From positions 1 through 41,308 of the forward strand of contig JAGUYX010000113.1 of NCBI GenBank assembly GCA_020061145.1: DNA of 41,308 nt. The letters run 5' to 3'. The first letter of the stretch is position 1. Every line of letters begins with the position of its first letter. Below, in pieces: positions 1,018-26,265 of this stretch. Both the position numbers and the translations under genes were made by a program. Source of the DNA: Anaerolineales bacterium (GTDB lineage: Bacteria > Chloroflexota > Anaerolineae > Anaerolineales > DRKV01). The notes beneath the pieces are model-generated. The model was not told where the DNA came from. It did no database searches and saw only the letters and a program-made list of their open reading frames with translations.

Positions 1018-2769
1018 ATGCATCATTCCAACAAAAAGTGTTCAGCGTTCCTGTTTGCTTTTATTTGCATAACGGTTGTCCTGGCATTTACCACAGGTGT
1101 GCAGCCCATCCAGGCAGAAGAGGATACCTGTCTAAATTGCCACAGCGACCAGGAGTGGTTGAAGGAGTACACCGTGAATTGGTCTAAGGTGTACGTCGAT
1201 CCAACGCAGATGGCTGAGGAGGCTCACGGGGGATTGGATTGTGTCACATGCCACACCGGCGATCCAACGAAAGATACCCCCGAGGAAGCCTGTATCGGGA
1301 TTGCTTACAAAGATCCGGCCGCCCCGGAGACCGTGCGGAAGACTTGCGGAAGTTGCCATCCCGAAATCACCGATCGTCACCTGTCCTCAATTCACTCCAC
1401 ACTCAATGGCATTCGTCTTTCGCTACATGATTTGGTCGGTGAGGAAGAAGGCGAGGCTCGTTTTCAGGCTTCCTGCAATAAGTGCCATACAACCTGTTCA
1501 AGCTGCCACATGGAGCAGCCAGGCGCTCACGGCCTCCTTCAGCCGCAGGTAGAAAGCCATTCTTTCGCCGCCGAATCCTCAACGGATGTATGTGTTGCGT
1601 GCCATGACGGCACCGGGGTATCCTATTTGGGCAACCCTAAAGTTGAAGGGGCTGTGCCCAGCTCCATGGCGGAAGCAGGTATCGAGTGTATGGGGTGTCA
1701 TGTCGAAGAAGACGTACATGGCACTGGTGTACGCACCAATTTCCTTTCAGAAACAGAGAAACCAAAGTGTGAGACATGCCATAAGGATCCAGGTTACCTG
1801 GTAAGCGTCTCCGAAGGGCAGCGGCTCGCTCCCCAATTCGATGAGGAAAATCCGGCCCATGCTGATCACAAGAACTCCCTAAGCTGTGTAGCCTGCCATA
1901 CCCAATGGTATCAGAGCTGCTGGAACTGCCACGCTGGCCGCGAGGAAAGATCGACGACCGATGTTTACCTGGCGGTCAACCCGTTGACGAACCTGGTGCA
2001 CCCCGCAGTGCATTCCCCCGCGACCAGTCCGGACTGGGGTGACATCCCCGCAGAGATCGGCGGAGGCTGGGCGATTAAATCCCGGCACAGTTGGGGAGAG
2101 TCGTTAACTTGCGAGTACTGCCATACCGATGCAGCGGTTTATATCACAGGCAAGGATCGCCAGGCGCCTTTTGTCGGTGTTTGGGGGGAAGGTCGTGCAC
2201 AGGCCGCCTTTGTGGACGAGACCGCGATCCAACAGATCTTGATCGACGCGGAAGCGCTGGCTGCTGGCGTCCATAAAGATACAGGCTGTCTCGACTGCCA
2301 TTCCACGACCGATGATGCCGTTTGCAGTGAATGCCATGCAAACGTAGAAAAATCCGGATTGACACTTCTGGCTGATGAGACCGATTGGTCACGGACTGGC
2401 TACGCCACTACCCGCGACAATCTTCGGGAAATCGAAACCATCCTGATAGAGCTCGAGGCGCGGGGCATCCAAACTGGTGATTGGAGTGAGCAATGGTCAA
2501 GTATTAACGAAGACTATCTGCAGGGTTCGAAAACTTTCCACGACAAACCTGGAGAAACGCAAAAAGCGATGGATGAGATTGCCGGGAGGTCGGAGAACTT
2601 GATCGCAGAAGTCGACCGGGCAATGGAAAAAGATAACGCTCGCAGAGACTGGTTGCTGGCAGGCATTCCCTTTGGGCTCGGAGTCATAGGAGCAGTTGTA
2701 CTTGGTTATGTCGTCGAAAAACCAAATCGGAAGGATGAGGTGAATCACAAATGCGAAGAAACAGAGTGA
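1018..2769 (+). CDS. Membrane-anchored multiheme cytochrome c (13 CXXCH)
   Basis: N-terminal signal peptide, 13 counted CXXCH motifs, a helical region and a C-terminal TM helix. Confidence 0.93.
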   Translation: MHHSNKKCSAFLFAFICITVVLAFTTGVQPIQAEEDTCLNCHSDQEWLKEYTVNWSKVYVDPTQMAEEAHGGLDCVTCHTGDPTKDTPEEACIGIAYKDPAAPETVRKTCGSCHPEITDRHLSSIHSTLNGIRLSLHDLVGEEEGEARFQASCNKCHTTCSSCHMEQPGAHGLLQPQVESHSFAAESSTDVCVACHDGTGVSYLGNPKVEGAVPSSMAEAGIECMGCHVEEDVHGTGVRTNFLSETEKPKCETCHKDPGYLVSVSEGQRLAPQFDEENPAHADHKNSLSCVACHTQWYQSCWNCHAGREERSTTDVYLAVNPLTNLVHPAVHSPATSPDWGDIPAEIGGGWAIKSRHSWGESLTCEYCHTDAAVYITGKDRQAPFVGVWGEGRAQAAFVDETAIQQILIDAEALAAGVHKDTGCLDCHSTTDDAVCSECHANVEKSGLTLLADETDWSRTGYATTRDNLREIETILIELEARGIQTGDWSEQWSSINEDYLQGSKTFHDKPGETQKAMDEIAGRSENLIAEVDRAMEKDNARRDWLLAGIPFGLGVIGAVVLGYVVEKPNRKDEVNHKCEETE

Positions 2770-3395
2770 TTTTTGTGACTGTATTTGTTTTTGGCTTGAT
2801 CGCTGGCCTTGGCATCGGAATGATGATCGGTAGGGGTGGTTCAAACGCAGATCTGGCGCAGGCAAATACTGAACTGGAGGCCCGCCTGGATACAGCCACT
2901 GAAAACTATATGATCTTGATGAGGGAGTATAACAAGCTGTTTTCTTCGAAAACCGCTTTCCTCGCTGGATCTCCTGTTCAGGTGAGCTCTGCCTCTGAGA
3001 ACCAACCAGCCGTGATCGTGACGCAAGAGCCGACAACAACCTCTGAACCACAGGTAATTGCCACGAGCACCCCAACCCCTCTACCGGTTGGAGATACCGG
3101 CAAACCGGTTGCGGATTTTGAGGCGGAATCGATCAACGGAACCGGACCCCTGGAAGGGCCCCCTCCTCAGCCTTTCCAATTTACAGACAAGTCCACCGGA
3201 GTAATCACCAGTTGGTTATGGGACTTCGGCGATGGCACGACCAGCAATGAGCAGCATCCCTTGCATACCTATGAGAAGTGCCCTGGCGATGCCGAGCTGT
3301 GCACCGTGTCTCTGACGGTCTGCGGACCAGATGGCTGCGACACCATGACCAAGGTTGATTACTTGTGGGTCTCTGAGTCCTGCACCGGGTGCTAG
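2751..3395 (+). CDS. Membrane-anchored PKD-domain protein with Cys-rich C-terminus
   Basis: N-terminal TM, coiled-coil, Thr/Pro linker, PKD signature (PVADF...SWLWDFGDG...HTY), ends in CTGC. Confidence 0.85.
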   Translation: MRRNRVIFVTVFVFGLIAGLGIGMMIGRGGSNADLAQANTELEARLDTATENYMILMREYNKLFSSKTAFLAGSPVQVSSASENQPAVIVTQEPTTTSEPQVIATSTPTPLPVGDTGKPVADFEAESINGTGPLEGPPPQPFQFTDKSTGVITSWLWDFGDGTTSNEQHPLHTYEKCPGDAELCTVSLTVCGPDGCDTMTKVDYLWVSESCTGC

Positions 3396-3419
3396 CCGGG
3401 ACTTCCCATAAGATAACGA

Positions 3420-4595
3420 ATGGGAAAAGGTAGCATGCACTTCAAGAAACTCTTTCGTACACTCGCCGTTGCCACGGTCGTAGTTGTGTGGGGAGCCGGG
3501 TTAACCGTTTCCCGCACCGCGCTTGCCCGTGATGCAACCCAGGCAGCCAGCCCAGGGGATGAGTGCGTCACCTGCCACTCCACCCCCGGCCTGGGGATGC
3601 GTTTCACTACGGGTGAGATCGTCTCGGTCTACGTCGATCCGTGGCAGTGGGAGCAGTCCGTTCACGGTTCGACCCTACAATGCACCGCCTGTCACGCTGA
3701 CAGCGCGGTTTATCCTCACCTGGGGCGCGCAATTGCCCATCCGAGTCCCCGGGAGGTGGGGTACCTGACGCGCGGGTATGCTACCTGCGGTGAATGTCAC
3801 CAGCAACAGTATGTGGAATATCTGGGAAGCGTCCATGCGATCGCGCTCCGGGATGGCCAGGCCGAATCCGCGGTGTGCAGCGACTGCCATGGGGATCACG
3901 ACATCGAGCCGGCAGAAGCGAAACGAGATGGTTTGTCCGTCAGGACAGCTGTGATCAACTGTGGAAAATGTCACCAAGAGGAGTTCCAGCAGTATCAGAA
4001 TAGCGTGCATGGTAAAGCACTCTTGAATGGCGGTGATCCGAACGTTCCTGTCTGTGTAGACTGCCACGGTGTGCATGCCATGGGCGATCCAACGATGCCT
4101 GGATTTCGCCGTCAGTCACCCTATCTGTGCGCCTCCTGCCACGCGGATGAGGCGCTGATGAAAGAATATGGATTATCGGCCTCTGTTATGGAAACGTATG
4201 TCGCTGATTTCCATGGGACAACAATGCGGATGATTTCTTCTGATGATGCACCGATATCTGCCGGCGCTGCGCCTGGAGTAGCGATGTGTTACGACTGCCA
4301 CGGGGTCCATGAAATCCGCAGCATGGTCGATGCGCAAAACCCGGCCAGCGGTGATGGTTTGCTGGATATCTGCCAGGAGTGCCACGAGAACGCGCCGCAG
4401 GATTTCCCTGCCGCCTGGTTAGGGCATCGCAAGCCAGATTCCGACCGCTTTCCTCTTGTATTCTGGATCCAGCGCATTTACTCCATTGTAGTTGGTGGGA
4501 TGATTATCGTCTTTGTAGGCCATATCGGCCTCGACTTTGGGAAGATTATCGTTGGCAAGTTACGCGATGAGAGGAAGAGGAGGAGAGCTGAATGA
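3420..4595 (+). CDS. Nonaheme cytochrome c with C-terminal TM (CbcL-like c-type part)
   Basis: Signal peptide, 9 CXXCH, repeated SVH motifs, C-terminal TM with His. ATGA overlap with the cytochrome b gene. Confidence 0.9.
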   Translation: MGKGSMHFKKLFRTLAVATVVVVWGAGLTVSRTALARDATQAASPGDECVTCHSTPGLGMRFTTGEIVSVYVDPWQWEQSVHGSTLQCTACHADSAVYPHLGRAIAHPSPREVGYLTRGYATCGECHQQQYVEYLGSVHAIALRDGQAESAVCSDCHGDHDIEPAEAKRDGLSVRTAVINCGKCHQEEFQQYQNSVHGKALLNGGDPNVPVCVDCHGVHAMGDPTMPGFRRQSPYLCASCHADEALMKEYGLSASVMETYVADFHGTTMRMISSDDAPISAGAAPGVAMCYDCHGVHEIRSMVDAQNPASGDGLLDICQECHENAPQDFPAAWLGHRKPDSDRFPLVFWIQRIYSIVVGGMIIVFVGHIGLDFGKIIVGKLRDERKRRRAE

Positions 4596-5782
4596 GTGAA
4601 ATCAACCTGGAGAGGTTTAGCCGATTCTCTCGAAGTGAGCGCATCCAGCACGCCCTGTTGCTGGTCATGGTAACGTTGCTGGCGCTGACCGGACTGCCAC
4701 AAAAATTCAGTTCAATGGATTGGGCGCCGGTCATGATACGCATGCTCGGTGGTGTGGAGGTTGCCCGCCTTATTCATCGTTTCTGCGCATTCACTCTTAT
4801 CGCCGGGATGACCTATCACGTGTTGTATGGTTTGTATCGGCTGGTCTTAAAGCGCGCCAGGTTTGAAATGCTGCCCAGAATCAGGGATTTTAATGATTTG
4901 AAAGGAAACATCGCCTATTTCGTTGGAATCAAGAAAGAGCGACCGCGTTTCGAGCGCTTCAACTATATTGAAAAGTTTGAATATTGGGCGGTGCTGTGGG
5001 GGATGGTCGTGATGACGCTCACCGGCTTGATCTTATGGTTCCCTGCCAGTGCCGCCAGGATTTTGCCTGGGCTTGCCATTCCCGCTGCCAAAGCTGCTCA
5101 CAGCGGTGAAGCCTTCCTGGCTATAACCGCGGTCGTAATCTGGCACATGTATAACGCTCACATGAGTCCCAGGGTGTTCCCCATCAATAAGTCCATCTTC
5201 AATGGGAAGATCTCAAGGCATGAACTGATGAGCGAGCATGCAAGCGAGTACGAGCGCCTCACCGGCGAGGAAGTGCCGGGAGAAGTTCTTGCGGAACGGC
5301 CGGAGGTTTCTTGGTCCATGCTCCTGACTTCCGGTCTGGTGGGCGTGTTGCTGGTTAGTATGTTCACTATCTTGCTGTACTGGAGCATCACGCCGCCCAA
5401 GCCGGCTCTTCTGCCACCTCTTCACCCTCCTCTGGAGCGGAACTCGATCCTTGTGACGGAAACCCCTTACGGTGCAGACCCAACCGTTTTCTGGGCGGGG
5501 CTTCAGGCACCTCCCGTGGCAGACTTCTCTGTCGCTCAAGAAGAAGTGGGGGAGGGTGGAGCGGCCATCCAGGAACTCCGTTTCCACGACCAATCCACTG
5601 GCCAGGTGACGAGCTGGTTGTGGGATTTTGGCGATGGAGAGACCAGCATGGATCAAAACCCAGTGCACGTTTATAAAGGGACATGCCCGGCAGGCGATCA
5701 CTGTCTTGTTTCCCTGATTGCCTGCGGACCGGGTGGCTGTAACCGTCTTACAAGACCAACCTTGATCCAGCCGCACAGGTAA
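4592..5782 (+). CDS. Di-heme cytochrome b (FdnI/HydC-like) fused to a C-terminal PKD domain
   Basis: RF..ERIQH, LALTGLP, RLIHR, RFNYIEKFEYW, AHSGEA, IWHMY motifs, followed by PKD (SWLWDFGDG). Confidence 0.88.
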   Translation: MSEINLERFSRFSRSERIQHALLLVMVTLLALTGLPQKFSSMDWAPVMIRMLGGVEVARLIHRFCAFTLIAGMTYHVLYGLYRLVLKRARFEMLPRIRDFNDLKGNIAYFVGIKKERPRFERFNYIEKFEYWAVLWGMVVMTLTGLILWFPASAARILPGLAIPAAKAAHSGEAFLAITAVVIWHMYNAHMSPRVFPINKSIFNGKISRHELMSEHASEYERLTGEEVPGEVLAERPEVSWSMLLTSGLVGVLLVSMFTILLYWSITPPKPALLPPLHPPLERNSILVTETPYGADPTVFWAGLQAPPVADFSVAQEEVGEGGAAIQELRFHDQSTGQVTSWLWDFGDGETSMDQNPVHVYKGTCPAGDHCLVSLIACGPGGCNRLTRPTLIQPHR

Positions 5783-5846: not shown

Positions 5847-6404
5847 ATGAGCAAACCTGGTTACACAGAACCGACGATCCTGGAGAGTTCCCTGACCCCT
5901 CTCATCCAACACTTTAATGATCACCTGGGCAAGGTGCGTTTTATCACCCTGCTCTCTCCCACCTGACCGAAGTGAATTGACAAAGGTACCCGTGCGGTAC
6001 GAAATGGTATCCTCGAAGCTTTTCCGGGTGCTGATATTGCGATCATGGTGGTCTGGATCAGTATGATGGAGGGTGATACTTTGGAAGCTGCGCGCAAAGG
6101 TAGCGAGACCTTGCCCGATCCCCGGATCCGATTCTTCTTCGACCCCATCCAGCAATCGGGGCAGGCCATCGCGGCCAGTCTGGGAAACCCCAGGGAAGTC
6201 GCCTGGGACGTTTACCTCTTCTACCCACCAGATTCCGTTTGGGAAGGACGGATCCCCCCCGGACCTGAGATGTACATGCATCAGTTGAGTGATAGCTGGG
6301 CAGACCAGGGACGCTTGTTTCAAGACCTGGAGCTGGGCAAGGAACTCCACCGCGAGATGTCCATACGAATTGACAGATACAAAGTCGGCAAAGTGAAAGA
6401 ATGA
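5847..6404 (+). CDS. Thioredoxin-fold selenoprotein with UxxU motif (TGA 5964, TGA 5973), 185 aa
   Basis: GAGG RBS and ATG 5847, reading ...KVRFITLLSPT-U-PK-U-IDKG... in frame with track ORF 6045..6404. Both TGAs occupy CxxC positions after a beta strand. Confidence 0.85.
5986..6000 (+). promoter_or_regulatory. Candidate SECIS hairpin
   Basis: GTACC-CGTGC-GGTAC starting 10 nt after the second TGA. The stem is short. Confidence 0.5.
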
Positions 6405-6874
6405 AGCGGCAAAGAGAGATTTGTAATACCCTGCTCCTGGCGTTGGCAACAGCCGTGCTTGCCGCTTGTATGTCTGGCACGGAGGCCTCGCCATCTCCCA
6501 TTATCCCCACACGGGCGGGAACACCTGCCCGTGAAACCACCGCTTCGCCTGCCCCCACACCAGTCCCACTCGCGCAGATGGCCGCAGATGAAGACGAACC
6601 CGGGAGTGAAGAGGGGGCGGAGGAGATCGATTGGGGAGAGGAGATCGGTCTCGATACTGTCATCGAGCTGGCGAAACGGGACGATCTGGTCGAAATTCAA
6701 TGGCACGTGATGCCGAACATCATCCGGGTGTTAATTGCAGATGGCAGTATTTATCATTTCAGGAATGAAAATTCAGGGATCGATATCATCAGAACTCTGG
6801 AGAATGCCGGTATCACGGTTGGGAAAGGAGGCGTTACCGTTCGATTCTCCTTTTGCAATTGAGAGGCGCCTTAA
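6401..6874 (+). CDS. Lipoprotein, probably with C-terminal CxU (C-N-U-E-A-P-stop); ends at 6862 if TGA is a stop
   Basis: Lipobox VLAAC and a Pro/Thr linker. TGA 6860 lies two codons after Cys, TAA follows at 6872, and a SECIS-like hairpin is present. Confidence 0.7.
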
Positions 6875-6892
6875 CCCTGGTCAGGGTTAGGG
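6869..6892 (+). promoter_or_regulatory. Candidate SECIS hairpin
   Basis: CCTTAACCCT-GGTC-AGGGTTAGGG: 10-bp stem with one G-U, loop 16 nt after the TGA, no U-tract. Confidence 0.65.
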
Positions 6893-7709: not shown

Positions 7710-8015
7710 GTGAACAAGATCCTGGTTGAGTTCTTCAGCACCTGCCCGGGTTGAAAAGCTGATGAGCAGTTGGTAACTGCTATCTGCGCCAGCCCTGCTT
7801 GGCGCGACAGGGTCGAGCTCAAGGTATATCGCCTGGACCAGGACCCTTCCGAGGGCAAAAGGTATGGGAATATTCGGGGAGCCACGGTCGTGATTAACCA
7901 GAGGGACATGCTTCGACGGATAAACGCCTATGCCTTGCAGCAAGCCTTAGCACAGGCAGAAACAAACCAGATAAACGAACACCTGGCCGTGAATAATGAG
8001 TGGTTCCATGAATAG
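7710..8015 (+). CDS. Thioredoxin-like selenoprotein, CxxU (SaoT-like); TGA at 7752
   Basis: GAGGA RBS and GTG 7710: MNKILVEFFSTCPG-U-KADEQL...VELKVY...KRYG...TVVIN, in frame with track ORF 7770..8015. Confidence 0.85.
7761..7784 (+). promoter_or_regulatory. Candidate SECIS hairpin
   Basis: GAT-G-AGCAGTT-GGT-AACTGCT-ATC, with the GGT loop 17 nt after the TGA. Confidence 0.75.
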
Positions 8016-8568
8016 CACTATGCTGATCCTCTTGTTCACCCTCCTCTCAACAGTGGCTCTTCTGCTGTTGGCAAACAAGCTCCGCCTTTTCCGCGACCGG
8101 GAAGTGGTTGGATCAATCCTTCATTTGGCGATCACTGACCGGGAAAGCGTGCGGCTTGGCATCGTAGCCGCGGCAATGTATGTGGCGGTTTTTATGATTT
8201 TTGGCGGTCAGGGTGGCCGTATCCATGTTTTTTGGGGACGCTGGATCCTCACCATGACCGCCGGTGATGCCGTTCTTGGCGTGTTCATCGCGTTCCTGAT
8301 CGGACTGGCGGTGGTCCTGATCTCCTACAGTATCAAAGCCATGGGATTGCCCAAGGCTGGAAAGGGCGGAATAGGCGTATTGGGCACGGCGCTTGCCATG
8401 CTTGCTTCTTTCTGTCCCTGATGACTCCCCATGATCACAGCTCTGGTCGGAGCTGCAGGAGCCGTATTCTTAGCCAGCTATTGGAGCCTGCTGGCGCTTT
8501 TGTCGATCGATATGCTCCTGGCCAGCGTTTTGATGTTGGTAGCGAAGTTGAGAGATGAGGCGACTTGA
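7996..8568 (+). CDS. Multi-TM membrane selenoprotein with CPUU motif (tandem TGA 8419, 8422), 190 aa
   Basis: The track ORF ends LASFCP. TGA TGA is followed by 47 further hydrophobic codons (LPMITALVGAAGAVFLASYWSLLALLSIDMLLASVLMLVAKLRDEAT*). Confidence 0.8.
8438..8455 (+). promoter_or_regulatory. Candidate SECIS hairpin
   Basis: CAGCTCT-GGTC-GGAGCTG with the loop 20 nt after the second TGA. CTCC/GGAG can form a lower stem. Confidence 0.72.
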
Positions 8569-8659
8569 ATATGACAGCCAAGCGAGTCCTAGTTAAGGAC
8601 TGGAACAACCAACCCGATAACCCTATGCCGTTGCTGCGTTTGTTCGAGACCGTTTAGAG

Positions 8660-9862
8660 ATGATTTACCTGGATCATGCCGCGACGACCCCCGTCCGTTC
8701 CGAAGTGCTGGATGCCATGATGCCCTTCTTCTCGTTAAATTATGGCAACCCTTCGAGCCTTCATCATAAAGGCCAGGAGGCCTCTCAAGCGCTCGAAGAT
8801 GCCCGCCAGTCAATCGCCAAAGACTTGAATTGTTATCCGGATGAGATCGTTTTTACAAGCGGCGGTACAGAGAGTGATAATCTTGCCATCCGCGGGTATG
8901 CATTTGCCAATCAACGAAACGGCAAGCACATTATCACCTCCTGCGTCGAACACCATGCTGTTCTAAACACCTGCCGCCAGCTTCAACAACACCATGGTTT
9001 TGAAGTCACGTACCTGCCGGTCGATTCGACCGGGATGGTATCCCCAGACGATTTCCAGGGGGCGATCAAACCAGAGACGATCCTGGCGAGCATCATGTAT
9101 GCCAACAACGAGGTGGGCACGATTGAACCCATTCGGGAATTGGCCCGGATTGCGCATGACCACGATGTCGGGTTTCATACGGATGCCGTCCAGGTCTTGG
9201 GACTGATAGATTTGAATTTGAGAGAGCTCGGGGTGGATATGCTCTCGCTCTCAGCCCATAAGTGTTATGGCCCCAAGGGTGTAGGGGTGTTGTTTGTGAA
9301 GCGCGGGGTCCTGCTCATGGAAATCCATGCCGGCGGGGGGCAGGAGAGCACACGCCGCTCTGGGACGGAAAATGTACCGGGGATCGTCGGCATGGCTACG
9401 GCAATCCACCTGGCCTTCTCGGGTTACCGGAAAAACCTGCATCGTTTGGAGAAGTTACGCGACCGCTTGATTGAGTATATCCTGGAGGAAGTACCCGGTG
9501 CCCAGCTCACAGGACATCCTGCTCAGCGCTTACCGAATTCCGCCAGTTTCACCTTCCCGAATATACCTGGCCCGGATGAATTGATTTTATTGCTTGATTT
9601 GAATGGAATTGCGGCCTCCAGCGGGTCAGCCTGCCATGCGAAATCCATCGAACCTTCTCATGTGCTCACCGCAATGGGCGTTTCTCTGGAGCGATCCTCC
9701 GGCAGCCTGAGGCTCAGCCTGGGATATGAGAATACAGAAGAGGAGATCAAACAGGTGCTGCACATCTTGCCAGAGGTGGTGATGGAACTGCAAGGGCTGT
9801 CGGGGGGCTTTCATGCTACGAACAGCAAAGCAAAAAATCCATATCTAGAATCGGGAAAATAG
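8660..9862 (+). CDS. iscS: Group I cysteine desulfurase (IscS/NifS-like)
   Basis: IYLDHAATTP, GNPSS, FTSGGTES, SAHK (PLP Lys), RSGTENV and SSGSACH motifs. Confidence 0.92.
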   Translation: MIYLDHAATTPVRSEVLDAMMPFFSLNYGNPSSLHHKGQEASQALEDARQSIAKDLNCYPDEIVFTSGGTESDNLAIRGYAFANQRNGKHIITSCVEHHAVLNTCRQLQQHHGFEVTYLPVDSTGMVSPDDFQGAIKPETILASIMYANNEVGTIEPIRELARIAHDHDVGFHTDAVQVLGLIDLNLRELGVDMLSLSAHKCYGPKGVGVLFVKRGVLLMEIHAGGGQESTRRSGTENVPGIVGMATAIHLAFSGYRKNLHRLEKLRDRLIEYILEEVPGAQLTGHPAQRLPNSASFTFPNIPGPDELILLLDLNGIAASSGSACHAKSIEPSHVLTAMGVSLERSSGSLRLSLGYENTEEEIKQVLHILPEVVMELQGLSGGFHATNSKAKNPYLESGK

Positions 9863-10029
9863 ATAGTTGTACCTATTACTATCGACCGGACCGTTCCTGT
9901 ATGATGCATCTGAAAACTGTCTTCATCGGATTCGAAGAGAAAGGAGAGGAAAAATACGCCAGATCGCCAAACATTACCGATTTTTCGTAACGTCTATTCC
10001 TATGCAACTCACAGAACATCAAAAGGAGT

Positions 10030-11934
10030 ATGCAACCAATGCGTAAGAAGTTTGCAATAGCTGTCCAATTGATGCTGACGCTGGCAATGATCCTTGCCGC
10101 GTGCGGCGCCCCGGCAGCTCCGCAAGCCACGCCTGAGGTCATCAAAGAGACCGTTGTCGTAACCCAGCAAGTGCCCGTGGAGGTCGTTAAGACCGTCGAG
10201 GTCCCAGTCGCACCCTCCGAGTACTCGATAACGGTGCTGAATCCCCAGGGAGCGATCCCGTTCGCCAGTGATCTGGCGCCGCGCCTCGATACCCTGGAGG
10301 GAAAACGTGTGGCCCTGTGGCTTTCCGCGACGCCTGATCATACGTACGCTGGACAGGGAGCGCCGCTGTATGATGAGTTGGCGAAGATGCTGAAAGAAAA
10401 ATTCGCCACCATCGAGATCATCCCTTACACTGATCTTCCCATGAAGTATTCCCCCGCCGATGAGGTTATCGCGGCAATCACCGCGACGGAACCCGATGCA
10501 GTCGTTGTCGCCTTCGGTGGCTGATGAGGGTGCCTTGGAGCGATGGGTTCCATCGCAGTAGAACTGGAAAAACTGGGTATCCCAACAGTAACTCTTTACA
10601 ACGAACGGCATGAGACACGTTTCATGGGTACCGTGTTGGCAAAAGGTTTTGCCGATTATCCGGCAAAGAATTTCGTTGAAATCGATACGCTGACCGAGGA
10701 GGGCGTTCTCGCCCTGGCTCCCCAGGCGTTCGATTTCCTGGTCGCAGGTCTGACAACCTGGGCTCCTCCGTACCTTGAAAAGCAAGGCGATCTGTGGGTT
10801 CCCACCGAATCGGAATTTATCTTCACGGGAGCAGCCTACGCAGAAGCCCTGGAAAACATGAACGAAGCCTTTCTTGCCGATCTCCGCTGGGGTGATGGAT
10901 TACCTTTGGTGCCAGCGACTCGCGAGCGCGTCGACGCCCTTCTGGCTGGCACGGACCTGGCCCCAGACACAGTTATCGGCACCTGGGGTCCGACAGGCGC
11001 TCAGTTCACGGTTGAAAAGATCGCCATCAATGCCGCCATGGCCGGGGCCCAACCCGAGTATATGCCGGTCATCTTAGCCGCCCTCCAGGCGATTACTTCC
11101 GTCAGATGGGATTCCTATGGACCTGTCATGAAGTCGCCGGTCCCCCTGGTGATCGTGAACGGCCCGGTTGCGAAGCAGATCGGTCTGAACTCCTCTGCGA
11201 ACGCGTTCGGTCCCAACCCGAAATACCCTGCAGGCGCGACAATTGGCCGGGCGATCAGCCTGGCGATGCACAACATTCCAGGTAATGGCCGTGGTTTGCT
11301 GCCCTCCAATCTGGCTGGAAATCCTGCAATGTACGCAGGGATGGTGATTGCGGAAGCTGAGGAAACCGAAGCGCTTGCTGAGGGCTGGGATCCGCTGAAC
11401 GTCCAGTTGGGATATGCCCCCGGCACGAACACTGTGACCGTGTTGGGCGTTGACCAGATGGACATGAGCATCTCGGGCTTTGTCGCTAACGTAGCCGCTT
11501 ACGTTGCCCCCGATAAGAACATCTGGCCAAGCTCGGCCGAAGCCTTCGATCAGCGCGTGGCAGGCGTGGTCGCGGTATCGGAAATGATGTTGATCACCGA
11601 CGGCATGATGAAGGGCATCACCAAAGCCGATATCCAGGAGGAGATGTACGAGAAGGCTCGCATCCCGGTGGATGAGTTCATGACGTTGGTTCTCACCGCG
11701 GAAGACGGTAGCGCTGTGGAACCGAACGCATTTATAAGAGAGCTCATTGGCGGTCTTGCTCCGGGAGAGGGCGTGCCGGTTGCAGCTGCGCCAGACAAGT
11801 TTCTGGTGGTAGCCACCGGCGGCCACTGAACTTGAGCACCGTATTCGTGGCTCGGTTCGAGCCGCTGGATGAGCACCCCTGTAACCGTCGAGATCTCCCT
11901 TCCCGCTAATTGGGAAAGCCTGGTCTCACAGTAG
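10030..11934 (+). CDS. UGSC-family lipoprotein with four selenocysteines (TGA 10522, 10525, 11827, 11833), 634 aa
   Basis: AAGGAG RBS and lipobox LAAC. Track ORFs 10030..10524 and 10543..11829 join in frame via VVVAFGG-U-U-GC-LGAMGSIAVELEKLGIPTV. The core has GDGLPLVPAT and TVEKIAINAAMAG. The end reads VVATGGH-U-T-U-APYSW...VEISLPANWESLVSQ, then TAG TAA. Confidence 0.88.
10540..10556 (+). promoter_or_regulatory. Candidate SECIS hairpin
   Basis: GCGATGG-GTT-CCATCGC starting 12 nt after the second TGA. Confidence 0.78.
11847..11865 (+). promoter_or_regulatory. Candidate SECIS hairpin
   Basis: GTGGCTCG-GTT-CGAGCCGC starting 11 nt after the second TGA. Confidence 0.78.
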
Positions 11935-12016
11935 TAACTTACCAAACGATGATCTTATCACGGTGGGAGCTTCGAAGCTCCCGGGCAGAGAAGCCCCCAT
12001 CGTGATTTCAAAGCCC

Positions 12017-12111
12017 GGGAGTGATTGAGTCCTGGTGGGCTCCTCGGTCTTCAAAACCGCTGTGGGGAGGTGGAAACCTTCCTGGGTGGGTTCGACTCCC
12101 ATTCACTCCCG
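12017..12111 (+). tRNA. selC: tRNA-Sec (anticodon TCA)
   Basis: 8-bp acceptor stem GGGAGTGA/TCACTCCC, anticodon loop CTTCAAA (TCA 12051-12053), long variable arm, 5-bp T stem with TTCGACT loop, G discriminator. CCA is not fully encoded. Confidence 0.96.
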
Positions 12112-12162
12112 CCTTTTACGCAGTATATGACAGGATTGCTTTGATAGAAAGGAGGTATGCCG

Positions 12163-12276
12163 GTGCGAAAATTAATCCTCTGCATATGATTCGATTTCAC
12201 CCAACGCAGTGACTGCGTTATTTCTGTACACAGACCGCGATGCTGCACATCCCCGAACCGGCATCCCTCCACGTAG
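12163..12276 (+). CDS. Putative Sec-containing leader peptide (CxU; TGA 12187), 37 aa
   Basis: Strong SD AAGGAGGT 6 nt before GTG: MRKLILCI-U-FDFTQRSDCVISVHRPRCCTSPNRHPST*. A SECIS-like hairpin AACGCAG-TGA-CTGCGTT lies at 12203-12219. Confidence 0.55.
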
Positions 12277-12300
12277 AGAGCGTGCAACCGAAGCAGTTAC

Positions 12301-12365
12301 ATACTCCCTGGGGGCTGGTTCCGGCGGCTGGCAGCCGGCCCATGTCAACCAAATGGAGGGAGTAT
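12301..12365 (+). promoter_or_regulatory. SD-sequestering structure upstream of yedE
   Basis: ATACTCCCT (12301-12309) is the exact reverse complement of AGGGAGTAT (12357-12365), which covers the yedE SD. Confidence 0.55.
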
Positions 12366-12370
12366 TTTTC

Positions 12371-13516
12371 ATGTCTGCACATAATCGGTTTTTTGCCTCA
12401 CGCTGGGCAATGATATTGACTGGAGGCGCAATCGGTGCCCTTGCGGCGTTGCTGGTCAAATGGGGAAATCCAGGCAATATGGGGCTCTGTATGGCCTGTT
12501 TCATCCGAGATATTTCTGGAGCCTTGGGACTGCACCGCGCTGCAAGCGTACAATATATCCGTCCTGAGGTGATCGGACTTGTTCTGGGGGCGAGTGCTGC
12601 TGCCATAGGCTTTAAAGAATTCAGAGCACGCGGTGGATCCGCCCCCCTCCTCAGGTTTCTATTTGGCAACCTGGCGATCATTGGCGCCCTGGTGTTTCTG
12701 GGTTGCCCCTGGCGGGCGTATCTGCGATTGAGCGGGGGTGATTGGAATGCCATTCCCGGCATTTTGGGATTGGCCGCCGGAGTCTTTTTAGGGGTCCTGC
12801 TCCTGAAGGCAGGTTTTAGTTTGGGGAGGAACCAGCGTGGACCCGCTCCGATTGGATTCGCTTTTCCCGCCCTGGTGATCCTCCTCCTATTCCTATTGGT
12901 CTTCGCGCCCATGTTCGGACGGGATGCCGATGGCAGACTGGTTGGTCCGATCTTCTTCTCCGAGAATGGGCCGGGTGCGCAGCATGCACCGTTGCTAATC
13001 TCACTCTTTATTGGTCTGGTGATCGGCTTCCTGGCGCAACGTAGCCGTTTCTGCACGATTGCCGGGTTGCGCGATCTGATGCTCATGGGGGATACTCACT
13101 TTGCTAGCGGCATTGTAAGCCTTGTGGGGGTCGCGTTTCTCGCCAACCTTGCCCTGGGCCAGTTCAAACCCGGCTTTGCTGATCAGCCCATTGCCCATAC
13201 CGACGCACTTTGGAATTTCGGCGGTATGGTATTGGCAGGGTTGGCATTTACCTTGGCTGGGGGCTGCCCTGGGAGGCAGCTCATTCTGGCTGGCGAAGGC
13301 GATGGAGACGCGGCCATGTTCGTCTTTGGTCTGCTGACCGGAGCAGCCATCTCCCATAACTTTAACCTGGCAAGTACGCCGGCTGGCCCGAGCCCCTACG
13401 GACCTGCGGCAGTTGTGGGCGGTCTGCTGGTTATTTTGGTTGTTGGCCTGGCGATGCGTGAGCGCTTGGTGGTATCGACGGAGAGTATGCAAGTTACGCA
13501 AGAGGTGAAAGCATGA
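12371..13516 (+). CDS. yedE: YedE-family putative selenium transporter
   Basis: GNPGNMGLCMACFIRDISGALGLH, VQYIRPE, FLGCPWR, QRSRFC and GGCPGRQL motifs. ATG 12371 follows GGAGGGAG. Confidence 0.93.
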   Translation: MSAHNRFFASRWAMILTGGAIGALAALLVKWGNPGNMGLCMACFIRDISGALGLHRAASVQYIRPEVIGLVLGASAAAIGFKEFRARGGSAPLLRFLFGNLAIIGALVFLGCPWRAYLRLSGGDWNAIPGILGLAAGVFLGVLLLKAGFSLGRNQRGPAPIGFAFPALVILLLFLLVFAPMFGRDADGRLVGPIFFSENGPGAQHAPLLISLFIGLVIGFLAQRSRFCTIAGLRDLMLMGDTHFASGIVSLVGVAFLANLALGQFKPGFADQPIAHTDALWNFGGMVLAGLAFTLAGGCPGRQLILAGEGDGDAAMFVFGLLTGAAISHNFNLASTPAGPSPYGPAAVVGGLLVILVVGLAMRERLVVSTESMQVTQEVKA

Positions 13517-13749: not shown

Positions 13750-14916
13750 TTGGATTCAAGTCTGATTTATCTGGATAACGCCGCCACCTCCTGGCCGAAA
13801 CCGCCGGAGGTTGTTCAGGCAATGGCCAGCTTCATCGCAGAGAGCGGTGGAAATCCGGGGCGTTCTGGTCACCGTCTGTCTCTGGCGGCTGGCAGAGTAG
13901 TGTACCAGGCGAGGGAAGAACTGGCCGACTTCTTCGGGTTAGATGACCCTCTCCGTTTAGTGTTCACCGCCAATGTGACCGAGGCCATCAACCTGGCGCT
14001 CTATGGGCTACTGCGCTCTGGTGATCACGTTATTGCCAGCAGTATGGAACATAACGCCGTCATGCGCCCTCTCAGGCACCTGCAGCGTGAAGGCGTACAT
14101 CTGAGCTTCGCCCCCTGCGGGATGGATGGCCATGTTTCCTTAGCGCATGTTGAAAAACTGCTCAAAACCCAAACCCGCCTGGTTGTGGTCAACCACGCTT
14201 CCAATGTAACCGGAACCATTCAGCCCATTGCAGAAATCGGCGCGCTCTGCCGAGAACACAACACTCTCTTCCTGGTTGACGCGGCTCAGACTGCGGGTGT
14301 ACTGCCGATCAACATCGAAGAGCTTCAAATCGACCTGCTCGCCTTTACCGGTCATAAGGGGTTACTGGGACCAACCGGTACTGGTGGATTGCTCCTGGGT
14401 GAGCGGGTGCCGTTCGAGGAGATGAAGCTGCTGGTGCGGGGTGGAACGGGAAGCCGGTCGGAATACGAGGAGCAGCCTGAGTTCCTGCCTGATCGCTTTG
14501 AAAGTGGCACCCCCAATTCGATCGGACTGGCCGGCCTTTTGGCAGGCCTTCAATTTATCAAGTCACACGCGCTGGATGCCTTACGCGAACAGGAAACTTC
14601 TCAGTTAGCCCGCTTGATCATAGGGCTGAGTAATCTCCCAAACGTCCGGCTGTTTGGCCCGCGCGATCCATCCCGACAGGTACCCGTGGTCTCTTTCACG
14701 CTCGATGGCATGCGGGTATCGGATATCGGTTTTCGACTGGATGAAGAATATGGCATCCTGTGCCGGCCTGGCTTGCAATGTTCCCCTGCTGCTCATCGTA
14801 CCTTAGGGACTTTCCCGCATGGAACGGTCCGGCTCTCTCCAGGTCCATTCACAAAAGATCGTGAAATTGAGAGCGTGCTCGAGGCGGTTGAGAGGTTATC
14901 GGCGGAATTACTATGA
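13750..14916 (+). CDS. Cysteine desulfurase/selenocysteine lyase-like class V aminotransferase
   Basis: IYLDNAATSWPKP, GNPGRSGH, FTGHKGL and RPGLQCSP motifs. Typical of selenium-utilisation operons. Confidence 0.88.
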   Translation: MDSSLIYLDNAATSWPKPPEVVQAMASFIAESGGNPGRSGHRLSLAAGRVVYQAREELADFFGLDDPLRLVFTANVTEAINLALYGLLRSGDHVIASSMEHNAVMRPLRHLQREGVHLSFAPCGMDGHVSLAHVEKLLKTQTRLVVVNHASNVTGTIQPIAEIGALCREHNTLFLVDAAQTAGVLPINIEELQIDLLAFTGHKGLLGPTGTGGLLLGERVPFEEMKLLVRGGTGSRSEYEEQPEFLPDRFESGTPNSIGLAGLLAGLQFIKSHALDALREQETSQLARLIIGLSNLPNVRLFGPRDPSRQVPVVSFTLDGMRVSDIGFRLDEEYGILCRPGLQCSPAAHRTLGTFPHGTVRLSPGPFTKDREIESVLEAVERLSAELL

Positions 14917-15140
14917 GTCAGTACGGAGTTGTATTGTTCTCGGGTACCCAGGCAGCCTTACGAGCTGAAAAACTGCTTGAGAGGGTTGGGCAGGTGGTGA
15001 AGTTGATTCCCACTCCCCGGCACTTGAGCTCCGATTGCGGGGTTGCGCTTCGTTTTTCCTGGGCGGAACAGAACGAAGTGGTCAACACGTTAGATCGGGC
15101 CAGGCTCGCCTATGAGACTATCGCTATTCTTGATGGGTAG
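14913..15140 (+). CDS. DUF3343 putative Se/S carrier-like protein
   Basis: VVLF....ALRAEKLL....KLIPTPRHLSSDCGVALRF. Confidence 0.85.
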   Translation: MSQYGVVLFSGTQAALRAEKLLERVGQVVKLIPTPRHLSSDCGVALRFSWAEQNEVVNTLDRARLAYETIAILDG

Positions 15141-15151
15141 GTGGCATCGAA

Positions 15152-16201
15152 GTGCTAAAAACAACCATTCGTCTCACCGAACTCTCCTCCTGTGCGGGTT
15201 GAGCATCTAAGCTGAGCCCAGAGGCTCTGGCGCAGGTGCTGCGCCCTTTGCGTGCCATGTTCCAGCCCCAGGATTGTCCCGATCTGATGGTCGGCATTGG
15301 TTGTCTGGATGATGCCGCCGTGTATCGCTTGGACAGTGAACGGGCCCTGATCTTCACGACAGATTTTTTCACGCCGGTGGTGGATGATCCGTATGACTAT
15401 GGAGCCATTGCCGCAGCCAATGCCCTTTCTGACGTGTACGCCATGGGCGGAGCGCCGTTGCTGGCGCTAAACCTGGCCGCGTTTCCAGCGCGCCTGCCGG
15501 CTGAGATCCTTGGGCAGGTGTTGATGGGAATGGCGGATATGGTCAAACAGGCTGGGGCTGTGGTGGCTGGAGGCCATACGATCCAGGACGAAGAGCCAAA
15601 AGTCGGCTTGTGCGTGGCTGGGATGGTCCACCCGGACAAGCTGCTCACCAAGGGAGGTGTGCAGCCTGGCGATCAGCTAGTGTTAACCAAGCCTCTTGGG
15701 ACAGGCCTTATTACCACGGCTGCCAAAATGGATCTGGCGGATCGGGAGGATGTCGATGAGGCAATCCAGTGGATGAGACGGCTTAACAGAGCTGCCGGGA
15801 AAACCGCAGCGGACCTGGACTTGCGAGGCGGTACCGATGTCACCGGATTCGGCCTGTTGGGTCATGCCTGGGAAATGGCAGAAGCGTCGCGAGTAACCCT
15901 TAAGGTTTTTTTTGAGGCAGTGCCGTTCATGAACGGTGTTGTCCGTTATGCCGACCAAGGGCTGTTCCCCGGCGGAACGGCATCGAATTATACGGCTTAT
16001 AGCAAACGGATCCATTTTGCAGAATATTTGAATGAGGATCAAAAGATGCTGCTGTTTGATGCGCAAACAAGCGGAGGACTACTCTTGGCCGTGCCACAGG
16101 AGAAGATGGGGGAGTTCTCCAATATGATGGAATTCCATGGCGAAAAGTGTTGGATCATCGGTGAGGCGGTGGGCAGGGAAGCCGGAATTCAGGTCATCTG
16201 A
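15152..16201 (+). CDS. selD: Selenophosphate synthetase, Sec-containing (U17, TGA 15200)
   Basis: GTG 15152: MLKTTIRLTELSSCAG-U-ASKLSP; then DDAAVY, TTDFFTP, ANALSDVYAMGG, GGHT, TDVTGFGLLGH, FDAQTSGGLL. Hairpins at 15214-15227 and 15229-15245. Confidence 0.96.
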
Positions 16202-16227: not shown

Positions 16228-18141
16228 ATGTATGTAGTCGGTACAGCCGGTCATGTCGATCATGGAAAGTCGACGTTGGTGCGGGCATTGACTGGGATCG
16301 ACCCCGACCGTTTGAAAGAAGAAAAAGAGCGCGAGATGACGATCGATTTGGGGTTTGCCTGGCTGGAACTGCCCAGTGGTCAGGAAGTCTCGATCGTTGA
16401 CGTTCCCGGGCACGAAGACTTCATTAAAAACATGCTGGCCGGGGTAGGGGGGATCGACGCTGTACTGCTGACGGTAGCTGCGGATGAGGCGATCATGCCT
16501 CAGACGCGCGAACATGTGGCGATTCTCGATCTCCTGGAGGTCAAGGCTGGCCTGGTTGTGTTGACAAAAGCCGACATGGTGCCTGACGAGGAATGGTTGG
16601 AGTTGGTCAAAATGGATGTGGCGAGTCTGCTGGAGAAAACCTCACTGGCAGGCGCCCCGATTGTGTTGGTATCCTCCAAGACCGGGAAAGGTCTGATCGA
16701 TCTGGAAGACAACCTCGATGCCCTTCTCAAGAAAACCCCACCACGCCGAGACTTCAACAGGCCGCGCCTATCTATTGATCGAATCTTTACAAAGCCCGGA
16801 TTTGGGACTATCGTCACCGGGACGCTGATTGATGGTCGTTTTTGTGTGGGAGATGAAATCGAGATCCAGCCGAAAGGGTTGAAGGGGCGAATCCGCGGGC
16901 TTCAAACCCACAAAAACAAAGTGGAAGTGGCCACTCCTGGCAGCCGAGTCGCGATCAACCTGACCGGCGTGAATCTGGAAAATCTCAGCCGGGGAGACGT
17001 TGTCACTCATCGCGGTTGGTTGAGCGGTACGGTTTTAGTGGATGCCCGCATCCGGGTTCTGGAGGACTTTGAACTGGCGCTGAGGCATGACATGGAAATC
17101 GAGATCTTCTCCGGGGCCTCACAGGTTTTGGGTCATGCCCGGGTGCTCGGCGCGGATGAAATTCGTCCTGGAGAATTAGGCTGGGTCCAGATCCGCCTGG
17201 TTGATCCAATTGCGTTGGTCAAAGGGGATAGGCTGATCCTTCGCCAGCCCTCTCCAAGCCGGACGATCGGCGGAGGAGTAGTTATCGATCCGCATCCCTA
17301 CCGCAAGCACCGCCGTTACCACGAAGAGGTCATCCGCCATTTAGGGGCAATGGCATCGGATACGCCTGAGGAAATCTTGCTGGCGACGCTGATGAAACAG
17401 GAGCCTATCTCAGCGCGGCTGGCCGTCCAACGCAGCCAGCTTGATTTGGAAGCAGCAGGAAGTGCGTTGTCTAAGCTGCTGGCAGAAGGATTGGTCTATG
17501 TGCTAAATAGCGACACTTCCGATCCTGGCAAGCTTGTTTCTGGCTCTTCCAACCTGATTTCCGCGGAAGGTTTCAATCGATTTGTTGAGCGGATCCGACA
17601 GGTCCTTTCGGAGTATCATACTGCGTTCCCGCTCCGCCTCGGGTTGCCCAGAGAAGAGTTGAACAGCCGCCTGGGTTTGGACCGTCAATTGGTCAATACC
17701 ATCGTAGAGCGTGCCGTGAAGCTGGGCTCGATTAGGGCTGTAGGGGGAAGCCTTTCCTTACCGGGGCACAAAGTGCTATTTTCTCCTGAACAACAGAGGC
17801 AAATTAACCAGGCTTTGGAGGTTTTCCGTCAGGCGCCTTTCACCCCGCCCCCTACAAGAGAGGTAGCATCGCTGATTGGAACAGAGGTCCTCTTTGCGCT
17901 CCTTGAGCAGGGGTGCTTGACCCAGGTGAGTAAGGATGTCGTTTTCATGACTGATACCTACAACCGCATCATCGAACAGGTTGTACAACACCTGAAGGAA
18001 CAAGGTACGATCACGATAGCGGAGGCGCGCGATCTCTTCAATACCAGCCGGAAATATACCCAGGCAATCCTCGAGCACATGGACGAAAAACGGATTACCA
18101 AGCGCCTGGGTGATAACCGGATATTACGACAAATGACTTAG
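16228..18141 (+). CDS. selB: Selenocysteine-specific elongation factor
   Basis: [35 protein letters not shown], and C-terminal winged helices with SRKY. Confidence 0.97.
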
Positions 18142-21580: not shown

Positions 21581-22261
21581 TTGAACCACTTCAACGTAAT
21601 CCAACCAGAAGTATCACAAATCCTGCCCGATTTACGTACGCTCAGTCGGGCCACCGGTCGTTTCAGAAAAGGACCGGGTTCATCCATACAATTAGCCCGA
21701 GAAACGACCCTGGTGGAGGCTTCGACATTAATCAAGCCGGTGGCAATTTGGGCGAAAATCGAGATTTCTCAGAATGATTCATCCATATTTCCTGTTTGGC
21801 TGGCAAAAAAAGCCTCCCGGGTTGAGTCGATCGCTGGCATTGTCTGCACGATAGGCGATCAACTGGAGAACATGTCTCGTAAATACTTCTCGATGGGGCA
21901 AAACACCCGTGGTTATATTTTGGACCAGGTCGGGTCCCTCGCCGTTGCGCGCCTCGCCAGCCAGGTTGCTGAACAACTGCGCCGCGAATTGAATGCTCTC
22001 TATTGGGCGCCTGGCGATGACACGACCGACGTCACGCTCTCCGCCCAGCGTTGGCTCTTCGACCTCATTCCCGCCCAGAAGATCGGCGTCCGGCTTACCG
22101 GCCAGAATGTGATGGTGCCGGTCAAGTCATTATCTTTTTTTCTGCTCATCCGGACCGGACAAGCCGGTTTGAAGTGCGCAATTCCCTGCCAGCGCTGCAT
22201 CTGGAATGGCGCGTGCGATCAACGCATGCAGAAAACTTCCTCTGGCAATTCAGCGGCATGA
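21581..22261 (+). CDS. MetH reactivation-domain-like protein with C-terminal Cys cluster
   Basis: VCTIG..LE....F......YILDQVGS, WAPG, IGVRLT...MVPVKSLS, C..PC.RC....C motifs. Start uncertain. Confidence 0.7.
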   Translation: MNHFNVIQPEVSQILPDLRTLSRATGRFRKGPGSSIQLARETTLVEASTLIKPVAIWAKIEISQNDSSIFPVWLAKKASRVESIAGIVCTIGDQLENMSRKYFSMGQNTRGYILDQVGSLAVARLASQVAEQLRRELNALYWAPGDDTTDVTLSAQRWLFDLIPAQKIGVRLTGQNVMVPVKSLSFFLLIRTGQAGLKCAIPCQRCIWNGACDQRMQKTSSGNSAA

Positions 22262-22297
22262 AAGAGGCGGATTGACGGCCTGAAGGTAAGGGTTCAT

Positions 22298-23599: not shown

Positions 23600-23716
23600 A
23601 AGAACGTCTCGAAATTGTTGTTTAGCCAACAGACAGGGGGAGTAATCTTTGCTATCTTTGATCCTGGAATATTCCCAATACCGATCTGGATTTCATAATG
23701 AGATATCTGTACTTCC

Positions 23717-25537: not shown

Positions 25538-25617
25538 GCATTGGATCACTTGCTAAAAAGATTGATCACACCAGCTACAAGGAATCAGGAAAGCATCTTT
25601 CCAAACGGAGGCAAACG

Positions 25618-26262: not shown

Positions 26263-26265
26263 ACA

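Follow-up and report, generated by a model that had tools for sequence, protein, structure and literature searches.

A gene for a protein with four selenocysteines

Positions 10030-11934 (plus strand) of a contig from an Anaerolineales bacterium (GCA_020061145.1, contig JAGUYX010000113.1, positions 1-41,308 of the forward strand; this whole stretch of 41,308 nucleotides is called the window below) form, as comparison with related loci shows, a single functional gene whose predicted product is an exported, probably lipid-anchored selenoprotein with four selenocysteine (Sec, U) residues. Judging from the same comparison, this gene is real and is widely conserved among bacteria. The explanation that we prefer, and that we regard as probable when taken as a whole, combines the four-Sec gene with the use of one hairpin for each pair of UGA codons and with a relay of selenolates that runs through three proteins.

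The frame consists of 634 codons followed by a TAG stop, and the four in-frame TGA codons that are read as Sec lie in two tight pairs. At site 1 (10522-10527, plus strand), two adjacent TGA codons (10522-10524 and 10525-10527) specify U165 and U166 within a GG-U-U-G-C motif, in the context ...AFGG-U-U-GCLGAMGSIAVELEK. At site 2 (11827-11835, plus strand), the codons TGA ACT TGA specify U600, T601 and U602, with the two TGAs at 11827-11829 and 11833-11835. The motif here is of the general form GGH-U-x-U, present in this gene as GGH-U-T-U, in the context ...ATGGH-U-T-U-APYSWLGSSR. Apart from these four codons, the frame is open up to the TAG at 11932-11934, and TAA comes next (TAG TAA, 11932-11937). 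Reading the 634 residues of 10030-11934 through therefore confirms an earlier interpretation of this DNA made from its letters alone (the sequence-only reading), which had described in-frame segments split only by TGAs and ending at TAG TAA. That interpretation also placed GGH-U-T-U ahead of a family-like LPANW tail. The tail after site 2 reads ...EISLPANWESLVSQ, and LPxNW is indeed part of the consensus of the whole superfamily. A search of the organism's own genome with the four-Sec protein returned the same frame, flagged as carrying four TGAs.

Sec sites and their cysteine counterparts among relatives

A word-indexed database search with the four-Sec protein gave 337 matches. Among the best 120 of these, 96 have exactly the 428 amino acids encoded between the two TGA sites, and the longest does not exceed 442 amino acids. 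An exhaustive search of representative sequences with the whole protein retrieved 3508 proteins at E <= 1e-3. Cysteine stands at the Sec positions of several relatives. Five of the nine aligned full-length non-Sec relatives (560-585 amino acids) have CGSC, CGTC or CGAC at site 1 (P0139, P0146, P0171, P0198 and P0229), and more distant relatives of about 455 amino acids that begin just past site 1 carry GGW-C-x-C at site 2 (P0127, P0128 and P0130). The same replacement of U600 and U602 by a CxC arrangement is found in two genomic loci, L045 and L051.

We fetched 82 related public loci in all and read their frames through TGA; these loci are mutually related, so the counts that follow do not represent independent events. 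Site 1 is covered by 67 loci, comprising 25 with TGA-TGA, 41 with one TGA (mostly as D-U-G-S-C) and one that is unreadable (L038), such that TGA occupies the U165 column in all 66 readable loci. The 25 loci with tandem TGAs encode UUGC at this site, except for UUAC once and UUSC once. Site 2 is covered by 68 loci, and carries GGH-U-x-U in 24 of them, GGW-C-x-C in the two loci named above, and neither motif in the remaining 42. Both sites can be read in 53 loci: 16 combine UU with UxU, one combines Ux with CxC, 36 have Ux and no motif at site 2, and there are no mixed cases. Within the subfamily defined by the paired TGAs, TGA-TGA is kept in 25 of 25 loci at site 1 and GGH-TGA-x-TGA in 24 of 24 loci at site 2, and the frame, the positions of the TGAs and a 32-residue tail are conserved across loci of 46-65% identity. 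Because both the TGA pairs and the hairpins described below recur in every subfamily locus that covers them, they go beyond what chance would produce. The sequence-only reading had named homologues that end at GG and GGH with stops other than TGA as the sign of separate genes. The opposite was found, with open reading frames (ORFs) ending at these points by TGA only. The forms observed suggest a possible series in which UGSC comes first, U-x-A-C with CxC next, and U-U-G-C with U-x-U last.

The four-TGA gene was looked for in 40 other genomes of the same order and found in none. Three of the 40 have a domain of 35-38% identity without Sec pairs; the other weak matches in these genomes cover only the signal/linker region.

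Some homologues also vary at their ends. Most of those of 60-65% identity end right after ...ELP, without the ANWxxL tail. In five loci (L016, L021, L027, L036 and L049) the stop after ...ELP appears to be TGA, so that one mRNA would use TGA as Sec and as a stop about 30 codons apart. In another locus (L028, 110-1084), the 5' part of the homologue is replaced in frame by ilvC-like (ketol-acid reductoisomerase) sequence, and the contig is probably chimeric.

One SECIS-like hairpin for each UGA pair

A hairpin with a GGTT apex had been proposed for each site, and such hairpins were found after both TGA pairs and are conserved in the subfamily. Hairpin 1 (GCGATGG-GTT-CCATCGC, 10540-10556, plus strand) has a stem of 7 base pairs (bp) and a GUU loop, the G of which lies 23 nucleotides (nt) past the first TGA and 20 nt past the second. 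Hairpin 2 (GTGGCTCG-GTT-CGAGCCGC, 11847-11865, plus strand) has an 8-bp stem and the same loop, with the loop G 26 nt past the first TGA and 20 nt past the second. PMC4605307 describes the bacterial Sec insertion sequence (SECIS) as a stem of 6-8 bp whose loop has a conserved G some 20 nt past the UGA, and states that the SelB hinge absorbs differences in spacing. The geometry of both hairpins fits this description. The Haft preprint gives a 7-bp stem with a GGU loop as a typical SECIS. A scan of positions 9500-12500 against Rfam gave no match to a SECIS family, and returned tRNA-Sec only.

Pairing is maintained in 98.9% of cells for hairpin 1 (28 aligned sequences) and in 99.5% for hairpin 2 (24 aligned sequences), compared with 20-63% and 25-49%, respectively, when the partner strand is slid. 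Each hairpin shows one compensatory pair, which occurs in locus L035 for hairpin 1 and as a change from G-C to U-A in two sequences for hairpin 2. Although the minimum-energy fold at site 1 prefers a competing hairpin, the compensatory change in L035 favours the GCGATGG/CCATCGC stem. Conservation at synonymous positions is a stronger signal for the hairpins than covariation. Synonymous-codon entropy was computed across 32 sequences with identities of 56% or more, and of the 305 six-codon windows the 17 with the lowest values all fell on the two hairpins. Hairpin 2 is absent from L045 and L051, where Cys replaces Sec. L044 and L045, in which the first TGA is the only one, do have hairpin 1.

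From this arrangement we infer that one SECIS hairpin probably serves both UGA codons of each pair. SelB must then use the same hairpin for two insertions, between which the ribosome has moved by 3 or 6 nt.

Domain organization and structure models

The architecture predicted from the translation is a signal peptide with a lipobox, followed by a UGSC domain in which UxxC has turned into U-U-G-C, and then by a C-terminal domain of about 390 amino acids, here called domain X, in which a conserved Gly-rich loop has turned into GG-H-U-x-U. Bacterial lipoprotein signal peptides end in a lipobox with an invariant Cys. Residues 1-25 (10030-10104, plus strand) resemble such a signal (…LAMILAAC; MRKKFAIAVQLMLTLAMILAAC-G) and end in a lipobox-like L-A-A-C (Cys25), as judged by eye from the translation.

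Residues 69-242 (10234-10755, plus strand) match the UGSC domain of Pfam (PF24696) with an E value of 2.9e-16 and 60.5 bits against a cut-off of 25, over profile positions 2-171 of 172. This match spans the first TGA pair, in agreement with the proposal of one gene for a four-Sec UGSC-family protein with a lipoprotein-type signal. The NCBIfam equivalog NF041046 scores 35.8 bits, below its cut-off of 125, and the protein is not an equivalog of the stand-alone UGSC protein of about 147 amino acids. The sequence-only reading had taken site 1 as the UGSC (UxxC) motif with an adjacent second Sec, and the alignment to UGSC-family proteins that it recommended bears this out. U165 aligns with the Sec or Cys of the family and C168 with the family Cys, which are the ends of the UxxC/CxxC of UGSC-type relatives, and U166 falls in a column of G, V or T. 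The UGSC motif is thus matched at positions one (U165) and four (C168), with U-G as the inner letters in place of G-S. The label of UGSC-family lipoprotein is accurate as to family membership, but it understates a protein of which two thirds is the separate domain X.

Domain X (residues 248-634, 10771-11931, plus strand) has no Pfam or NCBIfam match over residues ~248-634. Folded alone by AlphaFold2 (AF2), it reaches a predicted local distance difference test score (pLDDT) of 90.6, and the model of the mature protein, built from an 86-row alignment, has a pLDDT of 92.4 and a predicted template modelling score (pTM) of 0.94. For the N-terminal domain (residues 26-190), the 50 best VIA rows are all Rossmann-type, periplasmic-binding-type or flavodoxin-like, with Z values of up to 11.3. 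There are no thioredoxin chains among these 50, a listing that does not exclude a thioredoxin-like fold. A fold search with the whole model matched only generic alpha/beta folds, and did so over the N-terminal domain. With domain X, no chain among 48,161 was matched at Z >=5 (the best being 4.5), and a sequence-profile search of the PDB gave a best E of 0.02 and no solved relative. Class I fumarate hydratase was the best Foldseek match to domain X (E 1.6e-3), but with a template modelling (TM) score of only 0.23, and we read no relationship into it. In alignments of 16-86 sequences, certain Asp, Thr, Arg, Asn and Glu residues of domain X vary little or not at all.

Domain X also occurs with other partners. 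In two loci from genomes of the same order (L003, 590-2398; L004, 1099-2946, minus strand), it is fused to a thioredoxin-like CxxC domain that replaces UGSC, and in L003 the fusion gene is followed by a stand-alone UGSC selenoprotein (ALAD-U-GSCTTC, 3055-3807). Among the genes next to single-Sec members are those for a pyridine-nucleotide disulphide oxidoreductase, a rhodanese and a DoxX/MauE protein. Single-Sec UGSC-fusion genes often stand beside a second UGSC-fusion paralogue (16 loci, for example L074, 1-1623, and L060, 4141-4773, and similar), and a stand-alone UGSC protein of 210 amino acids is found near them in 15 loci.

Two Sec-rich neighbours complete a three-gene module

The sequence-only reading regarded the gene as part of a system, and two Sec-rich genes in the window (6401-6874 and 7996-8592) do prove to be its conserved neighbours. 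The gene at 7996-8592 (plus strand) encodes a membrane protein of 198 amino acids and roughly five helices, with four in-frame TGAs. One pair (8419-8424) gives the U-U of FCP-U-U-LP, and the other (8566-8568 and 8572-8574) the U-x-U of T-U-I-U. Conserved hairpins follow both pairs, at ~8438-8455 and ~8585-8601. Sixteen loci extend far enough to show what precedes the UGSC-fusion gene, and in 14 of them its immediate upstream neighbour is this membrane-protein gene. A single-sequence query with the membrane protein matched only itself, and a profile search found 130 relatives. Those in the database are 134-179 amino acids long, and 85 of the 120 best listed of the 130 are the 138-aa front piece. 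The only family matches of this protein are to MerE, and all are below threshold: it scores 18.4 and 20.6 bits against PF05052 (cut-off 22.8; E 2e-3 and 4e-4), and 19.3 and 23.9 bits against NCBIfam NF010310 (cut-off 80; E 8e-4 and 3e-5).

The second partner, a small lipoprotein-like protein (6401-6874, plus strand), ends in FSF-C-N-U-EAP, with its TGA at 6860-6862. A 10-bp hairpin with a GGUC loop (~6869-6892) lies across the TAA stop of the gene. Homologues found upstream of the membrane protein in seven loci end in F-U-x-U-xGPG, and the protein of the window is 35% identical to them (E 3e-33). Both partner families, the membrane protein and the small lipoprotein, are apparently undescribed. 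We considered a short-chain dehydrogenase and a 290-aa protein as further members of the module. Both recur loosely near both subfamilies, at varying distance and on varying strands, and they were not counted.

A candidate selenolate relay

The four-Sec protein and its two conserved neighbours might together form a chain of closely spaced selenolate sites that leads from outside the cell through the membrane. To such a chain, the small lipoprotein would contribute its terminal UxU, and the five-helix membrane protein would supply C-P-U-U within a helix and UxU at its tail. We tentatively propose that the chain acts as a diselenide-exchange electron relay that serves domain X as an extracytoplasmic reductase, with U-U-G-C and U-x-U as the two redox centres. 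The fusions of domain X to CxxC domains, together with the redox neighbours of single-Sec members, incline us towards an enzyme of reductase type that is supplied by the redox domain fused to it. The sequence-only reading had proposed the catalytic terminal enzyme of the system, with an unusually Se-rich site, a role that we treat as conjecture. A bolder version, in which an all-selenium transmembrane chain of three proteins would move cargo or electrons by Se-Se exchange alone, possibly with selenium itself as a polyselenide bridge, and would be synthesized by way of one SECIS hairpin per two UGAs, seems to us doubtful. Such a chain would hold nine Sec residues in the window and ten in most loci.

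Several points weigh against the explanation as a whole or against parts of it. The four-Sec product is known here from the DNA; the sequencing runs listed for this stretch are two DNA runs, with a small share each, and include no RNA run. U166 has no Cys counterpart in the aligned relatives, which carry G, V or T in its place. Covariation within the hairpins is thin, with one compensatory pair in each and invariance elsewhere, and the folding energies of the hairpins as single sequences are unremarkable (z -0.8 to -1.4). PMC4513850 reports 30-40% per UGA in E. coli, and four successive recodings should be costly. The membrane partner is missing upstream in two loci, one of which (L032) has other neighbours and the other of which (L028) looks chimeric, with its ilvC-like gene. 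In the window, the order of the three module genes is unchanged, but two minus-strand ORFs and a NifS-like gene are inserted between them. The weak MerE-like match and the CPx-type motif of the membrane partner point to metal handling rather than to electrons. Finally, domain X has no solved structural match, and the function of the protein is pure inference.

Alternative readings

If the TGAs were true stops, the region would hold three separate small genes, or a decayed gene of which the read-through frame is a relic. The gene callers of every public source do cut the frame at the TGAs (hence the 428-aa entries), TGA apparently serves as an ordinary stop after ...ELP in the five loci noted above, and the folding energies taken alone would agree with such a reading. 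Nonetheless, true stops would halve the UGSC domain, and they are difficult to reconcile with the conservation of the frame, the TGA positions and the 32-residue tail at 46-65% identity, with the Cys residues of relatives at aligned positions, with hairpins that are the most constrained synonymous sites of the gene, or with the presence of a complete Sec machinery. We consider this reading very improbable. Any code in which TGA stands for an amino acid would likewise leave the frame open, and the four positions might then be not Sec but Trp or Gly (NCBI tables 4 and 25). However, treating TGA as a sense codon across the window gives long junk extensions of ordinary genes, and relatives have Cys, neither Trp nor Gly, at U165, U600 and U602. 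The same four TGAs are also present in contigs recorded as Acidobacteria, Deltaproteobacteria and Thermodesulfobacteriota, and tRNA-Sec, SelB, SelD and SelA are all available to the organism. We give reassignment next to no credence.

A different question is what the proposed chain would carry. It could hand over a thiophilic cargo in the manner of the Mer proteins, the cargo being Hg(II), another soft metal, a metalloid, or selenium held as Se-Se-Se. On such a route, capture outside the cell by the UxU and UUGC lipoproteins would be followed by transfer to the C-P-U-U membrane helix and then to the cytoplasmic UxU tail. P1B ATPases and MerE have their metal site at a helical CPx motif, and vicinal Cys pairs mark MerT, MerF and MerA. 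The MerE matches, which are the only family matches of the membrane partner, cover the helix with C-P-U-U, and like-with-like motifs are found in each of the three module proteins. The module of the window also lies among selenium-handling genes, including those for a YedE-type transporter, a SclA-like lyase, a NifS-like desulfurase and SelD, and the Haft preprint connects mercury and organometallic chemistry with CU/CC motifs and with selenoproteins of the MerT family. Conversely, every MerE score (18-24 bits) stays under its cut-off of 22.8 or 80, the window and the loci examined contain no further mer gene, and the other loci, whose flanks are short, do not show selenium-handling genes around the module. 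Moreover, the large domain X, with its invariant Asp, Thr, Arg, Asn and Glu, looks enzyme-like and not chaperone-like. We judge a Mer-like hand-off to be possible, with some doubt, and a mechanism of some other kind to be unlikely; the electron relay is the proposal that we retain, as tentatively as stated above.

Genomic surroundings

The gene for tRNA-Sec (selC; 12017-12113, plus strand) was found by ARAGORN and by Rfam (RF01852, 73.5 bits) 82 nt 3' of the four-Sec gene, so that the two genes do adjoin as the sequence-only reading had stated. Its further claim of a promoter region belonging to the gene itself found no backing, as a scan of the 167-nt spacer upstream of 10030 (9863-10029) with the sigma-70 consensus revealed no promoter site, although this is a weak test. 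The four-Sec gene and selC are flanked by genes for a NifS-like cysteine desulfurase (8660-9862), a YedE-family putative selenium transporter (12209-13516; TIGR04112, 469 bits) and a SclA-like or EF2568-type desulfurase/Sec lyase (13750-14916), which together with SelD and SelB make up a selenium-handling island. SelD (~15134-16201, plus strand) itself contains Sec (…SSCAG-U-ASK, TGA at 15200-15202), and the table-11 ORF that begins at 15236 is therefore too short. SelB is encoded at 16228-18141. With SelA on another contig of the genome (C146), selA, selB, selC and selD are all present.

Two further clusters lie at a distance in the window. Positions 21581-27576 (plus strand) hold a cluster of corrinoid methyltransferase type, with a Crp-like regulator fused to B12-binding domains, a RACo-type activase, a B12-binding protein and a URO-D-like methyltransferase. 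Positions 1018-5782 (plus strand) encode multiheme c-type cytochromes with PKD domains and a cytochrome b561-like membrane subunit.

Comparison with known systems

In our literature search, which had most subscription journals outside its reach, neither the four-Sec subfamily nor its partners were found described, and nor was the bacterial decoding of tandem UGAs. The systematic shortening of these genes at TGA in public annotation makes the whole module invisible in current databases. Domain X belongs to a large family that has neither a name nor a solved relative (the 3508 representatives above being those for the whole protein). An exported protein with vicinal diselenides and His-Sec-x-Sec loops, whose motifs recur in its membrane partner, suggests very low-potential redox chemistry or very tight capture of soft metals, and we know of no bacterial system that has been characterised for such chemistry. 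If the proposal of an all-selenium chain is true, synthesis of the chain needs a recoding mode that is absent from the literature searched, in which one hairpin serves two UGAs that are adjacent or one codon apart. The genes provide a natural test case for whether, and with what efficiency, a single SECIS hairpin lets bacterial SelB decode two UGAs that have 0 or 1 codon between them.

With the UGSC family (PF24696, NF041046), the protein shares an N-terminal domain that scores above the Pfam cut-off and places U165...C168 on UxxC, and single-Sec fusions of the same architecture are common (41 of the 67 loci covering site 1). A fusion of UGSC with a conserved domain called Unknown_1, which may be the same as domain X, was already noted by Zhang and Gladyshev in 2008 (PMC2398784). 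The protein differs from the family in having U-U-G-C rather than U-G-S-C, in a second Sec pair 435 residues downstream, and in its four Sec residues, compared with the one given for UGSC in the table of a 2026 review (PMC13188914). The fold of the model resembles generic Rossmann and flavodoxin-like folds, whereas a thioredoxin-like fold was guessed for UGSC in PMC2398784.

The 119 families of prokaryotic selenoproteins in Table 1 of PMC13188914 have no more than three Sec residues per protein, and neither U-U nor U-x-U is among their motifs. The multi-Sec examples in this table are a Prx-like protein with UxxU, TsoB with UxxxxU, MbdU, and arsenite methyltransferase/AhpD proteins with three Sec. 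The present proteins resemble these in having more than one Sec per chain and in lying in selenoprotein-rich operons, as in SAO and Tso. Four Sec in each of two neighbouring proteins would lift the prokaryotic ceiling from the three of PMC13188914 Table 1. Another difference is that the four Sec of each protein are arranged here as two tight pairs.

In the mercury relay formed by MerP, by MerT, MerE or MerF, and by MerA, an outside binder is combined with a small membrane protein that has a vicinal pair in a helix and a pair in its tail, and with a larger protein with paired sites. The module is similar in that it has a predicted outside binder, a membrane protein with a vicinal chalcogen pair and a tail pair, and a larger paired-site protein. 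It differs in that Sec replaces Cys throughout, in that the large protein is predicted to be exported rather than cytoplasmic and is not a flavoprotein, and in its MerE scores, which are sub-cut-off.

Transmembrane thiol-disulphide relays of the DsbD/CcdA type use PCxxP motifs, and animal thioredoxin reductase ends in GCUG. The membrane partner is like the former in carrying a proline-flanked chalcogen in a membrane helix (P-U-U-L-P versus PCxxP), and the proposed relay would share with them a stepwise exchange between paired sites. Thioredoxin reductase offers the parallel of a redox centre formed by a vicinal pair, Cys-Sec or Sec-Sec. In contrast with DsbD/CcdA, there is no sequence or profile match, there is one such helix motif here, and every centre would be a diselenide. 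Eukaryotic selenoprotein P is an extracellular protein with an N-terminal UxxC domain and further clustered Sec residues, ten or more in number. The four-Sec protein is similar in its predicted extracellular site, its N-terminal UxxC domain and its clustered Sec residues, but the two are not homologous, the SECIS elements here are of the bacterial type, as in-frame hairpins, and the Sec residues number four rather than ten or more.

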